From the NCBI GenBank assembly GCA_023267215.1, contig JAHFNS010000001.1:239507-303506 (forward strand): 64,000 nt of DNA. The letters run 5' to 3'. The position numbers were made by a program, and so were the translations under genes. The DNA is from Candidatus Nomurabacteria bacterium (lineage in GTDB: Bacteria > Patescibacteriota > Minisyncoccia > Phycocordibacterales > UBA9973). Each line of letters begins with the position of its first letter. Position 1 is the first letter of the stretch. This document shows, in pieces, positions 9,177 through 61,359 of this stretch. The notes under the pieces were generated by a model that had not been told where the DNA came from, ran no database searches, and worked only from the letters and a program-made list of their open reading frames with translations.

Positions 9177-9280
9177 CCTCACCCCTTAATCCCCTCTCCA
9201 AGCAAGCTTAGAGAGGGGAAAAATACGTGAGCACCCCCTCTCTAAAATTTTAATTTTGGAGAGGGGGCAGGGGGGTGAGG
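9177..9280. repeat. Inverted doublet of the GC-rich CCTCACCCC/CCCCTCTCC palindromic element
   Basis: CCTCACCCC..CCCCTCTC-loop-GAGAGGGG (9177-9219) and CCCCCTCTC-loop-GAGAGGGGGCAGGGGGGTGAGG (9234-9280). Confidence 0.8.
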
Positions 9281-9420: not shown

Positions 9421-10500
9421 ATGAAAAAAGAAGAAATTATAGATGAAAATTTAGTTTTAAAATCTATTGTTGATCGCAGTAAAGATAAACCAGAAGTAGA
9501 TTCACTCGTAGAAGGCCCAGTTATTTTGGTTGAAAAATCATCAGTCTTTGTTGATTTATCTCCCTTTGGAACAGGTATTATTTACGGACGTGAATTTATT
9601 AATGCTAAAGATATTATCAAAAAGATAAGCCTTGGTGATATCATCAAAGCAAAAGTTGTTGAGAAAGAAAATGAAAATGGTTATACAGAACTTTCTCTTA
9701 AAGAAGCCAAACAAGCGCTCACTTGGAGTGAAGCTGAAAAAGCTATCAAGGCAAAAACTGTCTTGGATTTGGAAATAAAAGATGCAAATAAAGGAGGACT
9801 TATCCTAGAATGGCAAGGAATACAAGGATTTTTACCAGCTTCTCAACTTAAAGCTGATCACTATCCTCGAGTACTTGATTCAGATAAAGATAAAATATTA
9901 AAAGAATTGAAAAAACTTGTAGGTGAAAAAATTTCTGTCATGATTATTTCTACTCTTCCTAAAGAAGGTAAATTAATCTTCTCAGAGAAAGATAATAATC
10001 CTGAAGAGAAAAAAGAAATATTAAGCAAATATACTGTCGGCGATGAATTGAATTGTACTGTCGCTGGACTAGTTGATTTTGGAGTATTCTTGAAATTAGA
10101 AGATGGATTGGAAGGTCTTGTGCATATTTCTGAACTTGATTGGGGTCTAGTAGATGATCCTAGAACCATGTTTAAAGTAGGAGATGCTATAAAAGCTAAA
10201 GTAATCGAAATAAAAGATGGTAAAATTTCTCTTTCAATCAAAGCTCTTAAAGAAAATCCCTGGACAGAATTCGAAGGCAAATTGAAAAAGGGTGACATTA
10301 TCAAAGGTGTTGTTATTAAATACAACAAACATGGCGCTCTTATTTCTATCAAGGAAGGAGTGGCTGGACTTGTACATAATTCAACTTTTGGTGGAGAATT
10401 AAAACTACGTGAAAAACTAGAACTTGGAAAAACTTATAATTTCCAGATTACTCTCTTTGAACCTAAAGAGCATAAGATGACTTTGATACATCTAGAATAA
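9421..10500 (+). CDS. rpsA: 30S ribosomal protein S1 (four S1 domains)
   Basis: Repeated S1 motifs: GFLPASQL, DFGVFLKL, EGLVHISEL, KISLSIK. Confidence 0.9.
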   Translation: MKKEEIIDENLVLKSIVDRSKDKPEVDSLVEGPVILVEKSSVFVDLSPFGTGIIYGREFINAKDIIKKISLGDIIKAKVVEKENENGYTELSLKEAKQALTWSEAEKAIKAKTVLDLEIKDANKGGLILEWQGIQGFLPASQLKADHYPRVLDSDKDKILKELKKLVGEKISVMIISTLPKEGKLIFSEKDNNPEEKKEILSKYTVGDELNCTVAGLVDFGVFLKLEDGLEGLVHISELDWGLVDDPRTMFKVGDAIKAKVIEIKDGKISLSIKALKENPWTEFEGKLKKGDIIKGVVIKYNKHGALISIKEGVAGLVHNSTFGGELKLREKLELGKTYNFQITLFEPKEHKMTLIHLE

Positions 10501-10594
10501 AATAAAAAAGATACTTTTTTGGCATACGCAATATTAGTTTCGTGAACCATTGTCAGGTTCAAGTGCGAGCCGTGAAAAAGTATCTTTTTTATTT
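10501..10594. terminator. Long intergenic hairpin between convergent genes
   Basis: AAAAAAGATACTTTTT/AAAAAGTATCTTTTTT outer stem with inner GC-containing stems. Confidence 0.6.
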
Positions 10595-11221
10595 TTATGA
10601 AGTTATTGGTGCTGGAATAATTATATCTTCCGGACCAATGTCACTCATTATTTTCATCACTTGTTCAGCGTAACGAAGGACTATAGAAGGAGGATTGTAT
10701 GCGCGTAAAATTTGTTTGGTAGTTTTATCTGCATAATGTCTCTCAGTGTTAGGATTATTACCTCCTAAGTTTTTAGCTACTGTTTCAATAGCTTCTTCTA
10801 CAGTATCAAAACCTATCTTACAAGAACCCCATCCAAAAGGATTATTTTCTACTTTTATACAATCATTTCTACCTCCTGTAGATTCTCGAACAGCTATGGC
10901 GGGTATCAAACGCCAGTCAAGATCATTCTTTTCAGCTTCAATAACCATCTTTTCTCCTTGACCTGCTAAAGGCATACCATGATCTCTAAAATAAATATCA
11001 ATAGCATCAGCTTTTGCCTTCAGATCCTTAGCTTTTTGATCTAACTCCTGGTTAAAGGCTATTAAATCATGAGCTTCTATATTTTGTTTTTGTATAAATA
11101 CAGTTTGAACAGTATCTCTTGTAGTATTAGTTAAAATACTTCCCATTGGCACTGGAGTTCCAGCTACAAACGGTAAAAGAATAAGAGATTGAGCAAATCG
11201 TATTAAATTGTTTTTATTCAT
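10595..11221 (-). CDS. Secreted lysozyme/glucosaminidase-like protein
   Basis: RLIPAIAVRESTGG, NNPFGWG, YN..Y motifs. Confidence 0.65.
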   Translation of the reverse strand: MNKNNLIRFAQSLILLPFVAGTPVPMGSILTNTTRDTVQTVFIQKQNIEAHDLIAFNQELDQKAKDLKAKADAIDIYFRDHGMPLAGQGEKMVIEAEKNDLDWRLIPAIAVRESTGGRNDCIKVENNPFGWGSCKIGFDTVEEAIETVAKNLGGNNPNTERHYADKTTKQILRAYNPPSIVLRYAEQVMKIMSDIGPEDIIIPAPITS

Positions 11222-18868: not shown

Positions 18869-19741
18869 TCATAATAATACGTTATCAAAAATATGCTCAA
18901 TGACTTGATGCATATTCGTACCCACTAAACCACAAACTTGTGAAAGATGTGACTCTGGTTTCAGATCTGGAATCATCTCAAAATTTAACAAATATACCTT
19001 ATTTCTTTTATCTAAAATAAAATCTAATTTTAGATAATGCCGAACTCCCATATTCATATGTAATTTTTGGGCAATATTAATTAACTTTTCTTTCTCAGAA
19101 GAAGTAAAAGTACCAAAAGTATTTCCAAATGGAAAAGTGTATAAATTTTCCCCTCTAAAAAATGGCACCAAATGAAGAGAGGCTACTTTCCCTTCTATAA
19201 ATTCTTCAACTAAAATGTTTTTTTGATCTCTTGTTGTATTATCAAACACTTCCACTAATTCAGGAAAAGTCTTTATTAATTTAATTTCATTATTAATTTT
19301 TACAACCCAAGGTGAAGAAAATCTTTTAAAAACTTCTTGTGCATTTTTGGGAGAGACTATACATCTAGGCATTTTTATTCCCATCTTTTTAATTTTTTCC
19401 TGAAATTTTTCTTTGCTAATTTCAAAAAAAGGAGAAAAAGCCGGAATCCCAATATTTTTTATAGAATGACTTTCAAGAATATTAGAAAATCTTTGATGGG
19501 ACAAATTCCAAACCATATCTACCTTATATAATAATTTCATTGGTTCTATGGGCAAACCATTTAAATGCCAATTCCCTTCTTTATCTATCAAAATATCAAA
19601 AGGTTTATATTTATGAGATAAGTTTTCCAAAATATAAGAAATTATCTCCCCTCCTTTACGTAAAGAAGATTCGTAATGTTCATAATCACCTCCCCGCAAG
19701 ATACCTATACGTATTTTATCTTTTTCTTTTTTTTCTGGCAT
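18869..19741 (-). CDS. D-Ala--D-Ala ligase-like ATP-grasp protein (degenerate)
   Basis: GILRGG..HYESSL.GG, ILVEEFIEG; canonical HG and EVNTxPG motifs altered. Confidence 0.7.
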   Translation of the reverse strand: MPEKKEKDKIRIGILRGGDYEHYESSLRKGGEIISYILENLSHKYKPFDILIDKEGNWHLNGLPIEPMKLLYKVDMVWNLSHQRFSNILESHSIKNIGIPAFSPFFEISKEKFQEKIKKMGIKMPRCIVSPKNAQEVFKRFSSPWVVKINNEIKLIKTFPELVEVFDNTTRDQKNILVEEFIEGKVASLHLVPFFRGENLYTFPFGNTFGTFTSSEKEKLINIAQKLHMNMGVRHYLKLDFILDKRNKVYLLNFEMIPDLKPESHLSQVCGLVGTNMHQVIEHIFDNVLL

Positions 19742-19800
19742 CTAAATATTATAACACAGCTCAGCATTCTCCAGATTACATTTCATAATTAATCTTTTAG

Positions 19801-19844
19801 GCACCTCACCCCCTTACCCCCTCTCCAGATTACTGGCGAGGGGG
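19801..19844. repeat. GC-rich palindromic element upstream of DUF559
   Basis: CACCTCACCCCC-TTA-CCCCCTCTCCAG-ATTA-CTGGCGAGGGGG. Confidence 0.85.
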
Positions 19845-19864
19845 TTTCGTTATATAATTATTTA

Positions 19865-20218
19865 GTGACTCAATTTAAAACAATAATTAAAACTATATAT
19901 CTAAGAAAAAAAGAAACAAAAGCAGAAAAAATACTCTGGCAGGAATTAAGAAATAGCAATCTTGGTATAAAGTTTAGAAGACAATATCCTATTGATATGT
20001 ATATTCTTGATTTTTATGCACCTAAAATAAGACTTTCTATAGAACTTGATGGTTCTATCCATAAGCTAAAAGAAACTAAAGAATATGACGTAGAAAGAAG
20101 AATGTATTTAGAATCTAAATATATTTATGAATTAAGGTTTTGGAATTCTGAAATAGAGAATAATTTAAATTCAGTTTTAAACAAAATTAAAACAAAAATT
20201 AAAGAATTACATCACTAA
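19865..20218 (+). CDS. DUF559 / Vsr-like endonuclease
   Basis: LRK.ETKAEKILWQELR, KFRRQYPI..YILDF, IELDGSIH, LRFWNSE. Confidence 0.92.
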   Translation: MTQFKTIIKTIYLRKKETKAEKILWQELRNSNLGIKFRRQYPIDMYILDFYAPKIRLSIELDGSIHKLKETKEYDVERRMYLESKYIYELRFWNSEIENNLNSVLNKIKTKIKELHH

Positions 20219-20220
20219 AA

Positions 20221-20343
20221 TGCACCTCACCCCTTCCCCGCTCCATTTTAATAAAATGGAGCGGGGTTGATGCGAAGCAGACGGGGTGAGGTGCATTTTT
20301 CTCCCCTCTCTGGTACTCCGGAGAGGGGGCAGGGGGTGAGGTG
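20221..20343. repeat. Two GC-rich palindromic elements downstream of DUF559
   Basis: 20221-20295 and 20302-20343, both ending GGGGTGAGGTG. Confidence 0.85.
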
Positions 20344-20349
20344 TATTAA

Positions 20350-20658
20350 CTATTTTTTCCTAAATTTGGAATCAATTAATTTATAAACAGTTATAATAAA
20401 ATAAGGAATTATAAGTGCAAATAAATATTCCTCAAGTGGCATTAAACCTATATGTACCCCAAGTATACCCCCCCCTGGAAAAGACCAATGGCCACGCCAA
20501 ATTGCAAATGAATCCCAAATAACACCAAAAAGAAAGAAGAACCCAACAATCTCAAATCTTTCTTTTCTAGATTTGTAAAGATGAATGTGTTTCTTGTTCT
20601 CTAAAAATAAAGCAATAAAAAGTAAAATAATAAGAATTGTTAAATATTCAAAAGACAT
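20350..20658 (-). CDS. Lycopene cyclase domain-containing membrane protein
   Basis: WD..AI.RG.W.F and PLEEYLF motifs; start at MSFEY after TGtTATAAT. Confidence 0.8.
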   Translation of the reverse strand: MSFEYLTILIILLFIALFLENKKHIHLYKSRKERFEIVGFFFLFGVIWDSFAIWRGHWSFPGGGILGVHIGLMPLEEYLFALIIPYFIITVYKLIDSKFRKK

Positions 20659-20671
20659 ACTTTTATTATAA

Positions 20672-20708
20672 CAAAAAACACCTCGTGTTTCCACGAGGTG
20701 TTTTTTTT
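20672..20708 (-). terminator. Intrinsic terminator ending the 16S transcript
   Basis: AAAAAACACCTCGTG-loop-CACGAGGTGTTTTTT. Confidence 0.85.
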
Positions 20709-20981
20709 GCTGTTCTATGTTTTGTTTCGTTCTATAAATCCACTAAAATTTTAAAAAATTTAGGCGGATAAACTTTTTTATTTATTTGTCTTTCCAAATT
20801 GTCTTAGATTTTTAAGTTGTCTTAAACTTCACTTTTCTAGATTGTTGTGATCAAACATTGTGTCGTCAATTGAGCGACACAATACCGACTCAATTAGTTC
20901 AACCTCTCCGAGGTCAGGATACTCCAGTGGAGCATCTCTCAGCTTTGTAAAATAAATTTTACAAAGCTGGAACGGTTTTCA

Positions 20982-22599
<1,618 letters not shown>

Positions 22600-22997: not shown

Positions 22998-25718
22998 TTA
23001 TTTTAATAAAGCTTTGCTAGTTGCAGGACCTAGCAATCCATCTACTGTAAGTCCATTTCCAGCCTGAAATTTTTTAAGAGCCATTTGAGTGGCATAACCA
23101 AAATATTCTGTCTCTTGGCCTACCTCCACTCCTTCGATTTTAAAACCTTTTTCATTTAATAATTTCTGAAGACATTTAACTTCAGAATCGTTTATCCCTT
23201 TACTTAAAATTTTAGTAAACTCAGAGCAACTTGATGCTTCTACATTTGTATTTATATTTGTTTGTGAATTTTTTTCATCATTATTTGTTGCACTACCGAA
23301 AGCATCTAACGCATTTGCTGTTAACGAACTAAAAATTGAATTTTTGCTTGCAGTTGTTCCGGATGTTGAATTTATTTTTACCGTCAAATTTATTTTTGGA
23401 CTTCCACTGTTGTTAGAACCTACTGCCATAAACGTCAGATTATATGTCCCAGCGGCAAAATATGAGTGAGTAAATATTGCTGTAGATTGAGTAGTACTCG
23501 ATGGCAAAATTAGACAAGAAGTATCTGTTGGACATTGAGCCCCAGCGTCTCCCCAATCGACTATATATGTAAGAGTTGCACCACTTGAACTAGAAGCATT
23601 TATTGTCCAAGTGCCTGTTTGATTTACATTTAAGGTTTGCGGACCAGAAATATTATAAATCGTTACGGTTCCACTAGAAACGACAGGAAGATTAATTGGA
23701 TTAGAAGGAGTTGTGATTGGAGTTGGAGTTGGAGAAGTAACAGTAAAGTAATTATCACTTGAATCTAAGATATCATAATTATATTTAAGAAGAATTTTTA
23801 CTTTATATTGACCAGGTGCTAAATTTTTCGATAAAGTAAAAGATTCTACTCCATCATTTGGTGTCCCGTCCGGACCAGTTAATTCATATCCATCAAAATA
23901 AATAGTATTCCCTGTATTGTTTAAAACGATTACAACTTTTTGATTGTCAGTTGAAATATTTGGTGAATTCCATTTCACAGTTATCATGTCTCCTGCTTTA
24001 TAAGTCTCTCCACCATTTGGCGAAAGAACATTTATAGAAGGAGTTGTTGTGGTCGTTGGAGTTGTGATAGGAGGAACAGTTCCACAAGACAATCCGTTTC
24101 TCTGCATCAAAAGTGAAGCATCGTAGGAAGAGACACTCCCGTTGCCATCTATATCTGCTCGTGATTTTTGATCAGTTGTGAGATTACCATTTACAGCTGC
24201 ATTTAAAATCATATTCACATCAGTGCAAGTGATAGAACCATCACCGTTTACGTCACCAAGCAAAGTTGAGACTGGTTTAACACATCTAAATGTATTACAT
24301 CCATCTGCTCCTGTGTAAGATTCTGGTGCTGTTCCAGCAGAACAACTGACAAAAATTTGTGGACAAGCTGGAGTTGAAGGAGTTGTTGCTCCACAAGTTA
24401 AACCATATCTTTGCATCAAGAGTGAAGAATCATATGCTTGTACACTCCCATTGCCATCTACATCTGCTCTTGATTTTTGGTCAACAGTTAAAGTTTTGTT
24501 CCCAACCACTGCATCTAAAATCATTTGATTATCTGTACAGGTAATAGAACCATCACCGTTTACATCACCAATTGATAAACTTGGAATTGGGGTCGTCCCA
24601 CCCACAGTCACAGTAAAATTACTTGAATTGATTCCACCTTTACAATCCGAAACTGTAACTTTTGCATTATATGTCCCTGCTTTATTCCAAACATGATTTG
24701 CATTATATGTCCAATTCTTTTTTTCTTGTAAATTTATATTTCCCATCGGACAAATCATACTGACGGCAGTTCCTTCACCCCAATCCGTTGACCAAATTAG
24801 ATTATCATTATCTGCGTCAGTAGCATTAAAAACAAAACTGACCGACTGACCAGTGTTTACATTTGAAGGGACTACAAAAGAACCAATAACAGGATTGTTA
24901 TTTGTTGGCACCGCTACACCAACTACATTTACCGTCAAACTCGTCTGTGCACTTCCTCCATTGCCAGGACATGGAGTTGTAATACATCTTATTGTATTTT
25001 CACTTGTCACTGTAAATACTGGCGTATATGTTCCTATTTGGGAATAAGTATGAGTGAAAGTTGCTGTTTGAGATTGCGGTTGTATTAAGGAATTTCCTTT
25101 TAAAATATCTGTAGAATAAACATCTCCCCAATTTACAGAATATGTAAGATTCCCGCCATTCGAGCTAGAAGCATTTATTGTCCACGTACCCATTTGATTT
25201 ACATTTAATGTTTGCGAACCAGAGACACTAGAAATAACTGGACCAGTTGAAGAAGTAGTACATTTATATGAAGTCGTACAATTATTTACACCTATGACTG
25301 GCTCTATTTTCCCATTAGGACAAAAATTTGGAGCTGGTTGTGTAATAGCTGGACAAATAATTGGAGTCACCCCACTACATCCACTCACACTTGATATTTT
25401 CGCTCTCGTTATTGGACCCACATATCCACTATTTAAAATACCAACTTTTGTTTGAAATGATTTCACAGCTATTTGAGTTAACAAACCAAAATAACCAGTT
25501 GGTTCTGAATTAAGATATCCTTGTGATTGTAAAAAATCTTGCAGAGTAGAAACATCTCCGCTGGTATTTATATCGCGGGAACGATATTGAAGATTGTGAG
25601 TAATAGAAGCACAAGATGAAGTTTGGTCTGGATTAACATCTCCAGTAATTTGTGCAAACGAAAAACCTGGAACTAATAGAACTCCAGCAAGAAACAAAAC
25701 GATAATATATTTCTTCAT
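22998..25718 (-). CDS. Large surface protein: peptidoglycan-binding domains at both ends, PKD-like repeats, two dockerin-like domains
   Basis: LQDFL..GYFG.LT..AV..FQ PG-binding motifs; WGD..HTY PKD motifs; two GDVNGDGSITCTD..D(V/I)DGNGSV..YD repeats; start at MKKYII. Confidence 0.8.
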   Translation of the reverse strand: MKKYIIVLFLAGVLLVPGFSFAQITGDVNPDQTSSCASITHNLQYRSRDINTSGDVSTLQDFLQSQGYLNSEPTGYFGLLTQIAVKSFQTKVGILNSGYVGPITRAKISSVSGCSGVTPIICPAITQPAPNFCPNGKIEPVIGVNNCTTSYKCTTSSTGPVISSVSGSQTLNVNQMGTWTINASSSNGGNLTYSVNWGDVYSTDILKGNSLIQPQSQTATFTHTYSQIGTYTPVFTVTSENTIRCITTPCPGNGGSAQTSLTVNVVGVAVPTNNNPVIGSFVVPSNVNTGQSVSFVFNATDADNDNLIWSTDWGEGTAVSMICPMGNINLQEKKNWTYNANHVWNKAGTYNAKVTVSDCKGGINSSNFTVTVGGTTPIPSLSIGDVNGDGSITCTDNQMILDAVVGNKTLTVDQKSRADVDGNGSVQAYDSSLLMQRYGLTCGATTPSTPACPQIFVSCSAGTAPESYTGADGCNTFRCVKPVSTLLGDVNGDGSITCTDVNMILNAAVNGNLTTDQKSRADIDGNGSVSSYDASLLMQRNGLSCGTVPPITTPTTTTTPSINVLSPNGGETYKAGDMITVKWNSPNISTDNQKVVIVLNNTGNTIYFDGYELTGPDGTPNDGVESFTLSKNLAPGQYKVKILLKYNYDILDSSDNYFTVTSPTPTPITTPSNPINLPVVSSGTVTIYNISGPQTLNVNQTGTWTINASSSSGATLTYIVDWGDAGAQCPTDTSCLILPSSTTQSTAIFTHSYFAAGTYNLTFMAVGSNNSGSPKINLTVKINSTSGTTASKNSIFSSLTANALDAFGSATNNDEKNSQTNINTNVEASSCSEFTKILSKGINDSEVKCLQKLLNEKGFKIEGVEVGQETEYFGYATQMALKKFQAGNGLTVDGLLGPATSKALLK

Positions 25719-25823
25719 ATTTTTATTCCCTAGTTTTTCTCTAGAGAAATTATTTAATAAACTTAATAATAAAAATTTAATAAAATTATACTTCTGTTGA
25801 TATATATCTGTCAAGAATAGTTT

Positions 25824-26973: not shown

Positions 26974-27075
26974 ACCCCCGATATCCCCCTTGTCAGGGGG
27001 CTTTTTGTTAAAGTTTGTTCTGTATTGCATTTTCCACCTCTCCTTGTAAAGGAGAGGGGGCTAGGGGGTGAGGTG
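26974..27075. repeat. GC-rich palindromic element(s) between DHS and secG
   Basis: CCCCCTTGTCAGGGGG (degenerate) and CCTCTCCTTGTAAAGGAGAGGGGGCTAGGGGGTGAGGTG. Confidence 0.8.
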
Positions 27076-34124: not shown

Positions 34125-34131
34125 GAAAGAG

Positions 34132-34255
34132 TTCATTAAAAAGTTATAGTAAGTGATTGGGGAAACTGGTTAGATTCCAGTACAGTGCCGCTACGGTAAG
34201 TCCTGAACACCAATAGGTGGAAGGAACAAGTCCGATTACCAATCATTTTTATGAA
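34132..34255 (+). ncRNA. Cobalamin riboswitch
   Basis: GGGGAAACTGGTTAGATTCCAGTACAGTGCCGCTACGGTAAG...AAGTCCGATTACC resembles the B12-element core; closing stem TGATTGG/CCAATCA; DUF4430 genes downstream. Confidence 0.88.
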
Positions 34256-34287
34256 TCCCGAGCAGGACTAAGCCATTTTGAAGGCCC

Positions 34288-34763: not shown

Positions 34764-36309
34764 AATAATATTATTAAGTTTTATATCTCTTGGTTTTTTC
34801 AGTACTGTTTATGCAGATACTCCAATACATTTAAAGATAGCTACTCCAACAAATATAATTTATGATAAAGATATAACCGTCACCCCTTGTGATAGTGATA
34901 ATAATCCTCTAACCCCAGATATCATCACAGCCTACTGTGCAATCCTACAATCTGAAATATCAAATATCTGGGACTGGAGTTGGGCTCCTGGTGCATTCGT
35001 CACTTCTATAAATAATATTTCTGGTTTTACAAGCAAAGACAGAAACAATAATGATGTTTATCATTATTGGAGTTGGACTTTAAATGGAACAGAGGGGGCC
35101 ACTGGATTAAATCAATATACTTTACAGCCAAATGATTTAATTTCTCTTAATTTTATAGATCCAATAGATCTAACTCCTATCGTTTCAGCTGGTTCTCCAC
35201 AAATTGTCTCCCCAGAAATTAGTGCTACCCCCACCGCACTAGAACCAACAAGGGTACCAGTATCTACGCCTATAAAAATAAAACCTATATTTGATACAAA
35301 AAAGGCTTCTGATTTTATAGTATCACAACAAAAGGAGGATGGAACTTGGGGAAATGATCTTTACACAGACTGGATAGCTATCTCTCTGGCTTCTTTGAAA
35401 AAAGAAGATCAAAAAATAAATCCAATTATAGAATTAATAAAATATTTATCTTTAAATAAAATTTCTAGCACACTTTTAACCGATCATGAAAGACATACTA
35501 TGGCTCTATCAGCTCTCGGACTTAATCCATACAACATCAATGGAGAAAATTATATAAAAAAAATAACAGATAGTTTCGATGGGAAACAATTTGGTGATAT
35601 TGATAAAGATAATGATGATATTTTTGCTTTGATTGTTTTACAAAATGCTGGTTTTACTAAAGATGAAGATATTATTAAAAATGATATCTCTTACATATTA
35701 TCAAAACAAAAAGAAAATGGTTCTTGGGATAATAGTGTAGATATGACAGGAGCTGCTATGGAGTCTCTTTCTATATTTAGTAAACAAGACCCCTTCCTAA
35801 CCTCCCCCTTAGCAGAGGGAGGAACAATTCCAAATGCTATTAGTAAAGCAAAAGAGTATTTAAAACAAAACCAAAAAGATGATGGCGGTTTTGGCAATGT
35901 TTCTTCCACCTCTTGGGCTATAGAAGGTATCTTATCTCTCGGAGAAAAAGCAGAAGATTGGATAAAAAATGAACAATCCCCTATTGATTATTTAGCGACT
36001 ATGCAAAATGAAGATGGGAGTGTAAAAGAAGATAATTTAGACAACAAAATCTGGCAAACATCTTATGCTCTTTCAGCATTATCAGGGAAAACTTGGAATG
36101 AATTAATGCAAAAATTTGAAAAACCAAAAGAAATATTAGAAGAAAAAATAATTAAAAAATATACTCCAAAAATAAAAAACTCAAAAATTCAAAATAATGC
36201 AAACACCATAAATTCCATAATTAATTCTCCAATAAACACAGAAAAAGAAACAGCTCCTATAAAAAAGAGCTGGTTCAAAAACTTTTTAAATAAATTATTT
36301 GGAATTTAA
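34744..36309 (+). CDS. Secreted DUF4430 plus prenyltransferase/squalene-oxidase-repeat protein
   Basis: GAFVTSINN..YWSW.LNG; repeated Q..DG.W/F motifs. Confidence 0.8.
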   Translation: MSKQIIKIILLSFISLGFFSTVYADTPIHLKIATPTNIIYDKDITVTPCDSDNNPLTPDIITAYCAILQSEISNIWDWSWAPGAFVTSINNISGFTSKDRNNNDVYHYWSWTLNGTEGATGLNQYTLQPNDLISLNFIDPIDLTPIVSAGSPQIVSPEISATPTALEPTRVPVSTPIKIKPIFDTKKASDFIVSQQKEDGTWGNDLYTDWIAISLASLKKEDQKINPIIELIKYLSLNKISSTLLTDHERHTMALSALGLNPYNINGENYIKKITDSFDGKQFGDIDKDNDDIFALIVLQNAGFTKDEDIIKNDISYILSKQKENGSWDNSVDMTGAAMESLSIFSKQDPFLTSPLAEGGTIPNAISKAKEYLKQNQKDDGGFGNVSSTSWAIEGILSLGEKAEDWIKNEQSPIDYLATMQNEDGSVKEDNLDNKIWQTSYALSALSGKTWNELMQKFEKPKEILEEKIIKKYTPKIKNSKIQNNANTINSIINSPINTEKETAPIKKSWFKNFLNKLFGI

Positions 36310-40144: not shown

Positions 40145-40237
40145 AAGTTTGCTAAGATTTGCTTTTTATAAGGTCCTCGGTTCTCTGGGTCCCCTACCCC
40201 AGCCAGACCATTCTAAAAAGTAAATCTTAGCAAACTT
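40145..40237. repeat. 93-bp inverted-repeat element
   Basis: 24-bp arms AAGTTTGCTAAGATTTGCTTTTTA / TAAAAAGTAAATCTTAGCAAACTT. Confidence 0.7.
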
Positions 40238-41010: not shown

Positions 41011-41073
41011 ACCTCACCCCAGCTTGCTAGCTTTCCCCTCTCCTTATTAAGGAGAGGGGTCAGGGGTGAGGTG
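41011..41073. repeat. GC-rich palindromic element
   Basis: ACCTCACCCC-AGCTTGCTAGCT-TTCCCCTCTCCTTATTAAGGAGAGGGGTCAGGGGTGAGGTG. Confidence 0.9.
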
Positions 41074-61136: not shown

Positions 61137-61238
61137 AAAAAGCCCACCACTTAGGTGAAGGCTTTCGCCTTCCATACCGGTTTCCCGATACGGTCTGTCA
61201 GACAACCCCAAATGATGGGTTTTTTATGTCTGACAGAA
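61137..61238 (-). ncRNA. Candidate structured leader RNA
   Basis: Multibranch fold with two GAAA tetraloop hairpins and an alternative 11-bp pairing. Confidence 0.55.
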
Positions 61239-61359
61239 CTTCATTCACCATGCCTTTATTTCTAAAGGTTTAGGCTACTTTTAATATATTTAATTGTGTT
61301 TACATCATAACGCATAAAAGCCCTTTTGTTAAGGGGAGCATGATCAAATCAACCAGTAT

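Follow-up and report, generated by a model that had tools for sequence, protein, structure and literature searches.

A DUF559 nuclease gene between BoxC-type repeats in Candidatus Nomurabacteria, and its possible part in spreading them

In a genome of Candidatus Nomurabacteria, a short gene for a DUF559 nuclease lies between two outward-facing inverted repeats, and the same association of gene and repeat recurs in many bacterial phyla. We give a probability of roughly 0.6 to the reading that this cassette is a selfish element whose nuclease recognises and nicks its own type of end in transiently single-stranded DNA. The nuclease thus becomes a candidate for the enzyme that cuts or moves the repeat, a role that we infer from the distribution of the two partners.

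The window, by which is meant the whole 64,000-nt stretch of DNA that was analysed (G000:C15:239507-303506), has a GC content of 33% and belongs to a CPR genome (G000) of 797 kb in 21 contigs. Its features relevant to the cassette and to the dispersed repeats are as follows.

9177..9280, no strand: inverted doublet without a gene, flanked by rpsA and a metallo-beta-lactamase-fold gene
19757..19779, plus: degenerate left-end remnant, recognised by eye, marking the position at which the cassette starts in G128 and G103
19802..19844, plus: left cassette end, with C-rich tail (mirror third strand), short spacer and GC-rich hairpin with one mismatch
19853..19858, plus: putative TATAAT -10-like box, 6 nt ahead of the GTG start
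19865..20218, plus: DUF559 (YcjD-like, Vsr/EDxHD fold) nuclease gene, 117 aa, GTG start
20223..20293, no strand: inner two-tailed unit (tail, hairpin, small palindrome, tail)
20303..20343, minus: right cassette end, inverted relative to the left end, tail outward
21361..21429, no strand: two-tailed unit in a variable 16S rRNA hairpin (16S gene 20982-22599)
26974..27075, no strand: a short-stem unit (26974-27000) and a long-stem unit (27034-27075), of different subtypes
35790..35823, plus: degenerate unit within a 529-aa ORF, in frame and at a variable loop
41011..41073, no strand: two-tailed unit just past a stop codon

The original prediction placed one repeat unit upstream and two downstream of a DUF559/Vsr-like gene, with five further copies in the window, including one in 16S rRNA and one in a coding sequence; all of these are present. 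The ORF matches DUF559 at E 9e-30, is the sole match in the genome by tblastn and family search, and has its nearest named homologue (86%) in Candidatus Nomurabacteria. The tail of the left end is directed outward, and this end folds as DNA with z -4.95 and has a loop type also found at the left end of same-clade cassettes elsewhere. The outward arrangement, with the gene between two inverted repeats, is shared with G128, a relative that holds the minimal form of left end, gene and right end; the inner unit is present in G103, missing from G128, and has a counterpart with 11 nt of matching flank at G000:C20:117376-117447. A -10-like box stands 5-8 nt ahead of the start in 18 of 20 same-clade loci, a count made with a loose pattern and no background control, and the gene transcript is likely leaderless, judging by the position of this box. 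The G-rich end was ruled out as a ribosome-binding site, as it stops 20 nt ahead of the start. The cassette adjoins a D-ala-D-ala-ligase-like gene and a lycopene-cyclase-like gene, the latter a small membrane ORF (20350-20694, minus strand) that is found in G103 as two tblastn pieces and is missing from G128. As to a possible assembly artefact, contigs of sequencing runs X1 and X2, both of which may be the source sample, are identical to positions 19300-20886. RNA contigs at the locus cover the 16S side only, and run X4 offers a joint skipping the DUF559 gene that is weak (depth 2, 22-letter side).

Each unit consists of a C-rich tail, a spacer and a hairpin, and on the opposite strand the tail mirrors the purine arm; the 'CACCTCACCCC' part of the shared pattern is a mirror copy of the hairpin arm, i.e., a third strand. 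Judged from its sequence, the repeat has the intrastrand-triplex architecture of BoxC/PIT/TM repeats in class II layout and is not a REP, so that the DUF559 association and the REP/RAYT analogy of the original prediction hold, whereas the repeat itself is neither new nor a REP. The features shared with BoxC/PIT/TM repeats (PMC4666352) are a C-rich arm, loop, G-rich arm, short spacer and mirror G-rich third strand, occurrence as singles and inverted doublets, and a patchy distribution among relatives. Class II (Y-R-R) geometry, i.e., a hairpin plus mirror third strand with a stem of at least 8 and at most one mismatch, is found in the window once the first loop is relaxed, in 5 units with a first loop of up to 10 nt and 8 with 20 nt, and in none with the published limit of 6 nt. 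The strict TMECO consensus has no exact match in the genome and three at three substitutions, while the same pattern recovers 23 known copies in Escherichia coli K-12; compared with TMECO, the window repeats have longer loops and several coexisting subtypes. The GTAG head of REPs is absent from all nine window units, the inner unit having one incidental CGTC.

Changes in tail and arm are correlated in the manner that a purine-motif triplex demands. A mirror match of at least 7 under triplex rules occurs in 172 of 275 distinct units beside DUF559 genes (related units among them are not independent), a count above that of all 500 of 500 shuffles of tails between units (mean 60.5, maximum 76); plain duplication or inversion cannot produce a mirror match. 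In the available text of Holder et al. 2015 (PMC4666352), triplex formation by CD or NMR is documented for E. coli oligonucleotides only, as single strands in vitro, with no stable triplex in vivo. The same text describes the motif as solely intergenic, ties it to local instability, cites earlier work in which it had no promoter or terminator activity, and names no partner enzyme, the word 'endonuclease' having no occurrence in its main text. BoxC is also treated in PMC2267715.

A descriptor scan of the genome returned 43 units, one or two of them doubtful, and the same descriptor found no unit in any of five fourth-order Markov simulated genomes; a looser descriptor gave 44 clusters genome-wide with at least three subtypes. 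Chance origin is excluded by this simulation and by reversed-pattern controls. Six of seven window stretches folded as DNA gave z from -3.2 to -11.3, the copy at 35790 being weak (z -1.26) and closer to the second subtype than to that beside the gene. Units are often located at gene ends, and 14 lie in frame in long ORFs or housekeeping genes; those outside the window give Pro/Gly-rich peptides and comprise 13 further units, at G000:C15:135404, 197151, 201213 and 220653 and at G000:C20:72080, 169349, 226113, 226570, 237375, 253622, 258656, 315593 and 322320. Exact-pattern copies of the gene's own subtype number 8, against 37 of the general pattern, and most copies in G000 are of subtypes whose nuclease clade was not found there. 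The proposal that DUF559 may be the cognate enzyme of the family is supported in part: by these patterns, the window gene is cognate to a minority only of the genome's copies.

Other repeats and elements were seen in passing. Two further families of long hairpin repeats lie at gene ends, at 10490-10595 and near 40145-40235 of the window; each is found many times in relatives, and in G133 one copy occupies a site at which G000 has BoxC-type units. The window further holds a cobalamin riboswitch (34125-34261) upstream of a cobalamin-binding-like ORF, a LOOT RNA motif (61157-61276), and a gene (22998-25814, minus strand) that contains internal DNA repeats and encodes a 938-aa protein with PKD, dockerin and peptidoglycan-binding domains.

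The linkage of repeat and gene extends well beyond this genome. In a GTDB scan of many phyla, 73 loci were evaluable among the best 79 of 588 DUF559 matches. Unit density at these loci, by a strict detector, was 3.75 and 4.03 per kb in the 250 nt next to DUF559 and 0.04-0.17 beyond 1 kb; 50 loci had a unit, 32 of them on both sides. At the same 73 loci from the best 79 of 588, a unit stood beside 82 of 146 DUF559 gene ends compared with 16 of 559 control gene ends, and of 24 detector-negative loci, the approximately 22 inspected by eye show short-stem or degenerate variants. The genus was sampled with 121 genomes, from which all 107 DUF559 matches were taken (99 evaluable, 97 strong); a unit lies within 300 nt in 94 of the 97 strong loci, on both sides in 61, and unit density is 4.74 per kb within 300 nt against 0.49 beyond 500 nt. 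Weak, distant PF04480 matches had units at 0 of 4 and 0 of 13 loci. The outermost units are inverted at 54 and on the same strand at 18 of 72 loci from many phyla. Genomes with DUF559 (n = 58, three without units) carry a median of 8 units and those without it (n = 61, 34 without units) a median of 0, with G000 and G075 excluded, and the excess persists when 2 or 3 units per gene are subtracted (p 2e-4 and 5e-3). Enrichment beside the gene and correlation of copy number with its presence were thus both found as the original prediction expected. Among the 62 genomes with no detected DUF559, 11 have at least 5 units and up to 29, these genomes being drafts of 74-98% completeness.

Some DUF559 genes are fused to other genes. 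In ten genomes of the genus (loci L026, L225, L229, L238, L265, L272, L281, L282, L228 and L236), DUF559 and its ends lie, with the reading frame kept, within a large gene that we take to be that of leucyl-tRNA synthetase (LeuRS), at the same site in all ten; similar fusions also occur in HisF, HisH, TrpA and Tgt-like genes of other phyla. Viral contigs of about 71% GC (L112-L130) carry DUF559 with two-armed GC-rich repeats, flanked in L119 (L119:2887-3372) by terminase and portal genes, an order that resembles a gene transfer agent cluster; in a Caulobacter preprint, terminase and portal likewise have genes between them, there named gtaQS. An earlier view of the small viral contigs as inoviruses was dropped in the light of their terminase and portal matches.

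Different branches of the nuclease are associated with different ends. Clades were taken as identity clusters because a quick protein tree left many forks open, and one cluster of 33 pools several subclades. With end patterns defined after the flanks were inspected, each clade's own pattern was found in the window's clade at 18 of 20 loci, and in three others at 8/10, 8/8 and 10/13, and none occurred outside its own cluster. Copies more than 500 nt from any DUF559 gene, counted among DUF559-positive genomes only, were more numerous where the cognate clade was present than where it was absent in three pairings (2.88 versus 0.32, 3.62 versus 1.5 and 1.4 versus 1.0; p 3e-5, 1e-3 and 0.02), and six non-cognate pairings gave no significant enrichment. 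A host tree was built from SecA for 54 of these genomes, the other four having no SecA match; on it the window's clade required 15 changes against a shuffled mean of 13.9 and was not more clustered than shuffled labels. Of the independent pairs on this tree, 6.0 agreed with its cognate link and 0.1 went against it (median p 0.03, range 0.016-0.22). For the two remaining cognate links the tendency is similar but not significant (median p 0.125 and 0.25), as it is for one non-cognate pairing (4.0 pairs versus 0.7, p 0.375).

Relatives differ in whether they have the cassette at an orthologous site. In G000, G128 and G103 it occupies the spacer that separates the ligase-like gene from the 16S end, and it is missing there in 19 other relatives examined, which supplies the empty orthologous sites that the original prediction called for. 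The 104 genus loci fall into 25 site groups; the window's clade occupies six of these, several sites host different clades in different genomes, and DUF559 reaches six copies per genome, with pseudogenes present. No fixed target-site duplication or exact junction was readable in junctions compared at about 80% identity. Window copies are likewise missing from most relatives examined: the site of 26974-27075 has no unit in five relatives, two of them syntenic on both sides, and that of 41011-41073 has none in five of five, with the right flank aligned only. Among 24 relatives, the unit in 16S rRNA, which is backed by overlapping contigs of run X2 (possibly the source sample), is present as the same unit in two, as another subtype in one, and in none of the other 21. 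The surrounding 16S hairpin (window 21340-21450) is itself lengthened by 41-126 nt in 24 of 24 relatives, with varied, mostly AT-rich paired sequence.

Gene-less copies appear to have two origins. At the site of the 9177-9280 doublet, five relatives (G007, G013, G122, G095 and G089) hold full same-clade cassettes with similar left and right loops, G103 holds the doublet, and G128, G056, G133 and G042 have no unit; by this alignment the doublet is likely an emptied shell of a same-clade cassette, and relatives also hold a cassette with matching end types at the site of the gene-less cluster G000:C18:21504. Of the 43 gene-less clusters, five coincide with the site of a cassette in a relative; the subtype differs at three of these, which suggests that sites are reused. 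By contrast with such shells, a 74-nt gene-less unit is near-identical at six sites, mostly nested in a 140-nt composite; its orthologous places in five relatives have other repeats or nothing, and G056 has the composite elsewhere. This near-identity points to copying without the gene.

The 117-aa protein is a single domain whose predicted structure (pLDDT 84) matches 3hrl (E 1e-7), the catalytic domain of I-Bth0305I (3r3p, E 8e-5) and, weakly, Vsr; its family placement follows PMC3424549. The candidate catalytic residues E21, D49, E60, D62, H66 and D75, assigned to the published EDxHD residues by motif order (PMC3239194), are all intact in the window protein, which would thus carry an E-D-x-H-D active site on a Vsr fold; E21, D49, E60 and H66 are found in 184 of 184 DUF559 proteins, and D62 and D75 in 182 of 184. 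With dN/dS of 0.15 and 0.16 against its two closest relatives, and a median of 0.16 over the 129 of 190 clade pairs that are unsaturated, the gene is, on this estimate, under purifying selection. The window protein has no HUH motif (H-hydrophobic-H) of the IS200/IS605 fold, a family search returned no transposase match for the gene, and an Atlas search with the protein reached nothing past DUF559.

Among known systems, the closest analogue is that of REP-RAYT, REPtron and TIRtron elements (Nunvar et al. 2010, PMC2817692; Di Nocera et al. 2013, PMC3733652), in which a small nuclease gene is bounded by short palindromes, gene and repeat coevolve, cognate repeats are commoner with the gene, and doublets and mosaics occur. 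Coevolution and cognate abundance are also found here, with tree-controlled significance in one of three clades. The DUF559 cassette differs from these systems in its Vsr-type fold, its third strand, and the absence of an HUH motif and GTAG head. There is a further difference from RAYT genes as described: DUF559 occupies many sites, often several per genome and including in-frame insertions, it is scattered on the host tree, and some gene-less copies are apparently shells of lost cassettes. The fold and candidate active-site residues are shared with EDxHD homing endonucleases (I-Bth0305I; Taylor et al. 2011, PMC3239194) and Vsr, but, unlike the former, the window protein has no N-terminal DNA-binding region, no intron or intein, and no single conserved target gene, and, unlike Vsr, whose nicking of T:G mismatches is linked to a cytosine methyltransferase, its gene has no methyltransferase beside it in the window. 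In-frame insertion in genes (14 such units here) and two-armed doublets are shared with Rickettsia palindromic elements and Caulobacter CIR repeats, and the available text on these names no enzyme (PMC2229807, PMC3733652).

In E. coli K-12, a degenerate unit lies at the stop codon of the DUF559 gene ycjD (L031:1608-1961), and TM no. 9 is found some 170 nt from the gene. Two genomes with ycjD have 23 and 16 TMECO copies and two without it at the fabI site have 11 and 2, a comparison of four genomes only. The locus was rejected as a clean empty site, since both strains lacking ycjD carry a TetR gene next to fabI; the ycjD region is found in 3343 of 5426 complete E. coli genomes. A search of the openly accessible literature found nothing that links DUF559 or ycjD to BoxC/PIT/TM repeats, and the text covered of Holder et al. 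(PMC4666352) names neither. The repeat is thus already known, and its partnership with DUF559 is apparently unpublished.

Positions 19802-20343 thus hold an intact DUF559 gene between two inverted BoxC-type ends, each a hairpin with a mirror tail, and we propose that this cassette is a selfish element. The nuclease is likely the enzyme of a repeat-spreading element because the pairing recurs in many phyla, each nuclease branch with its own version of the repeat. To our knowledge, no strand-transfer chemistry has been described for Vsr-fold nucleases, and host break repair would for this reason be needed to finish the reaction. Such repair would bring new copies of the whole cassette, or of end units without the gene, to other sites; copies that lack the gene could arise by its loss from between the ends (as at 9177-9280) or by copying in trans (as for the 74-nt unit at six sites). 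Repeats would outlast their gene, which would account for copies of subtypes whose clade is not present in the genome. With somewhat less than even odds, DUF559 and BoxC-type ends may together form an unrecognised class of mobile element, in which a 117-residue Vsr-fold nuclease reads a three-stranded end, each clade its own, and relies on host repair, and on no DDE, HUH, serine or tyrosine recombinase or reverse transcriptase, to spread both its cassette and gene-less BoxC/PIT/TM repeats; YcjD of E. coli would then be the missing BoxC enzyme.

A narrower reading would keep mobility for the whole cassette, assisted by the nuclease, and treat gene-less repeats as scars of gene deletion homogenised by gene conversion, with no copying in trans. 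It fits the 9177-9280 doublet and G000:C18:21504, both at cassette sites of relatives with matching end types; the palindromic ends are, from their sequence, also direct repeats and would therefore collapse easily; and a correlation of dispersed copies with the cognate clade is predicted here too. We nevertheless consider it unlikely, since the 74-nt unit is near-identical at six sites at which the examined relatives have other repeats or nothing, 14 units lie in frame in housekeeping genes and one in 16S rRNA, and so few gene-less clusters map to cassette sites, the majority of these with a differing subtype.

Somewhat less probable again is the proposal that the ends are MITE-like and moved by another transposase, or by replication errors at folded DNA, and that DUF559 was captured once and serves an unrelated role in DNA repair. 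The repeats do remain in genomes without the gene, as in the E. coli strains lacking ycjD at fabI that keep 11 and 2 copies, and linkage alone would give clade-specific ends; a passenger would, however, not be expected to retain these ends at almost all strong loci of many phyla, or to do so as part of an in-frame fusion within LeuRS, HisF or Tgt. The least probable of the alternatives makes the nuclease a caretaker of the host that resolves replication-stalling hairpin or triplex DNA, such that repeat-rich genomes keep it and the flanking copies act as terminators or in autoregulation. Purifying selection on the gene, the frequent position of units at gene ends, and the local instability that Holder et al. 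(PMC4666352) connect with the motif all agree with it, whereas the gene is patchy on the host tree, varies up to six copies at many sites with pseudogenes among them, and the earlier work cited in the available text of that article detected neither promoter nor terminator activity.

If the nuclease does spread these repeats, two gaps would be addressed together: BoxC/PIT/TM repeats, described in the 1990s, have lacked both an origin and a partner enzyme, the widespread DUF559 family has lacked a substrate, and their pairing offers a candidate answer to both. The idea is testable in E. coli K-12, because ycjD adjoins BoxC copies there. If its recognition extends to the third strand, the nuclease would be a natural enzyme specific for triplex DNA, and evidence that such DNA exists in cells. 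The same reading would account for the GC-rich inserts in the rRNA of CPR bacteria, and for the short Pro/Gly-rich peptides and DUF559 domains found within housekeeping proteins.
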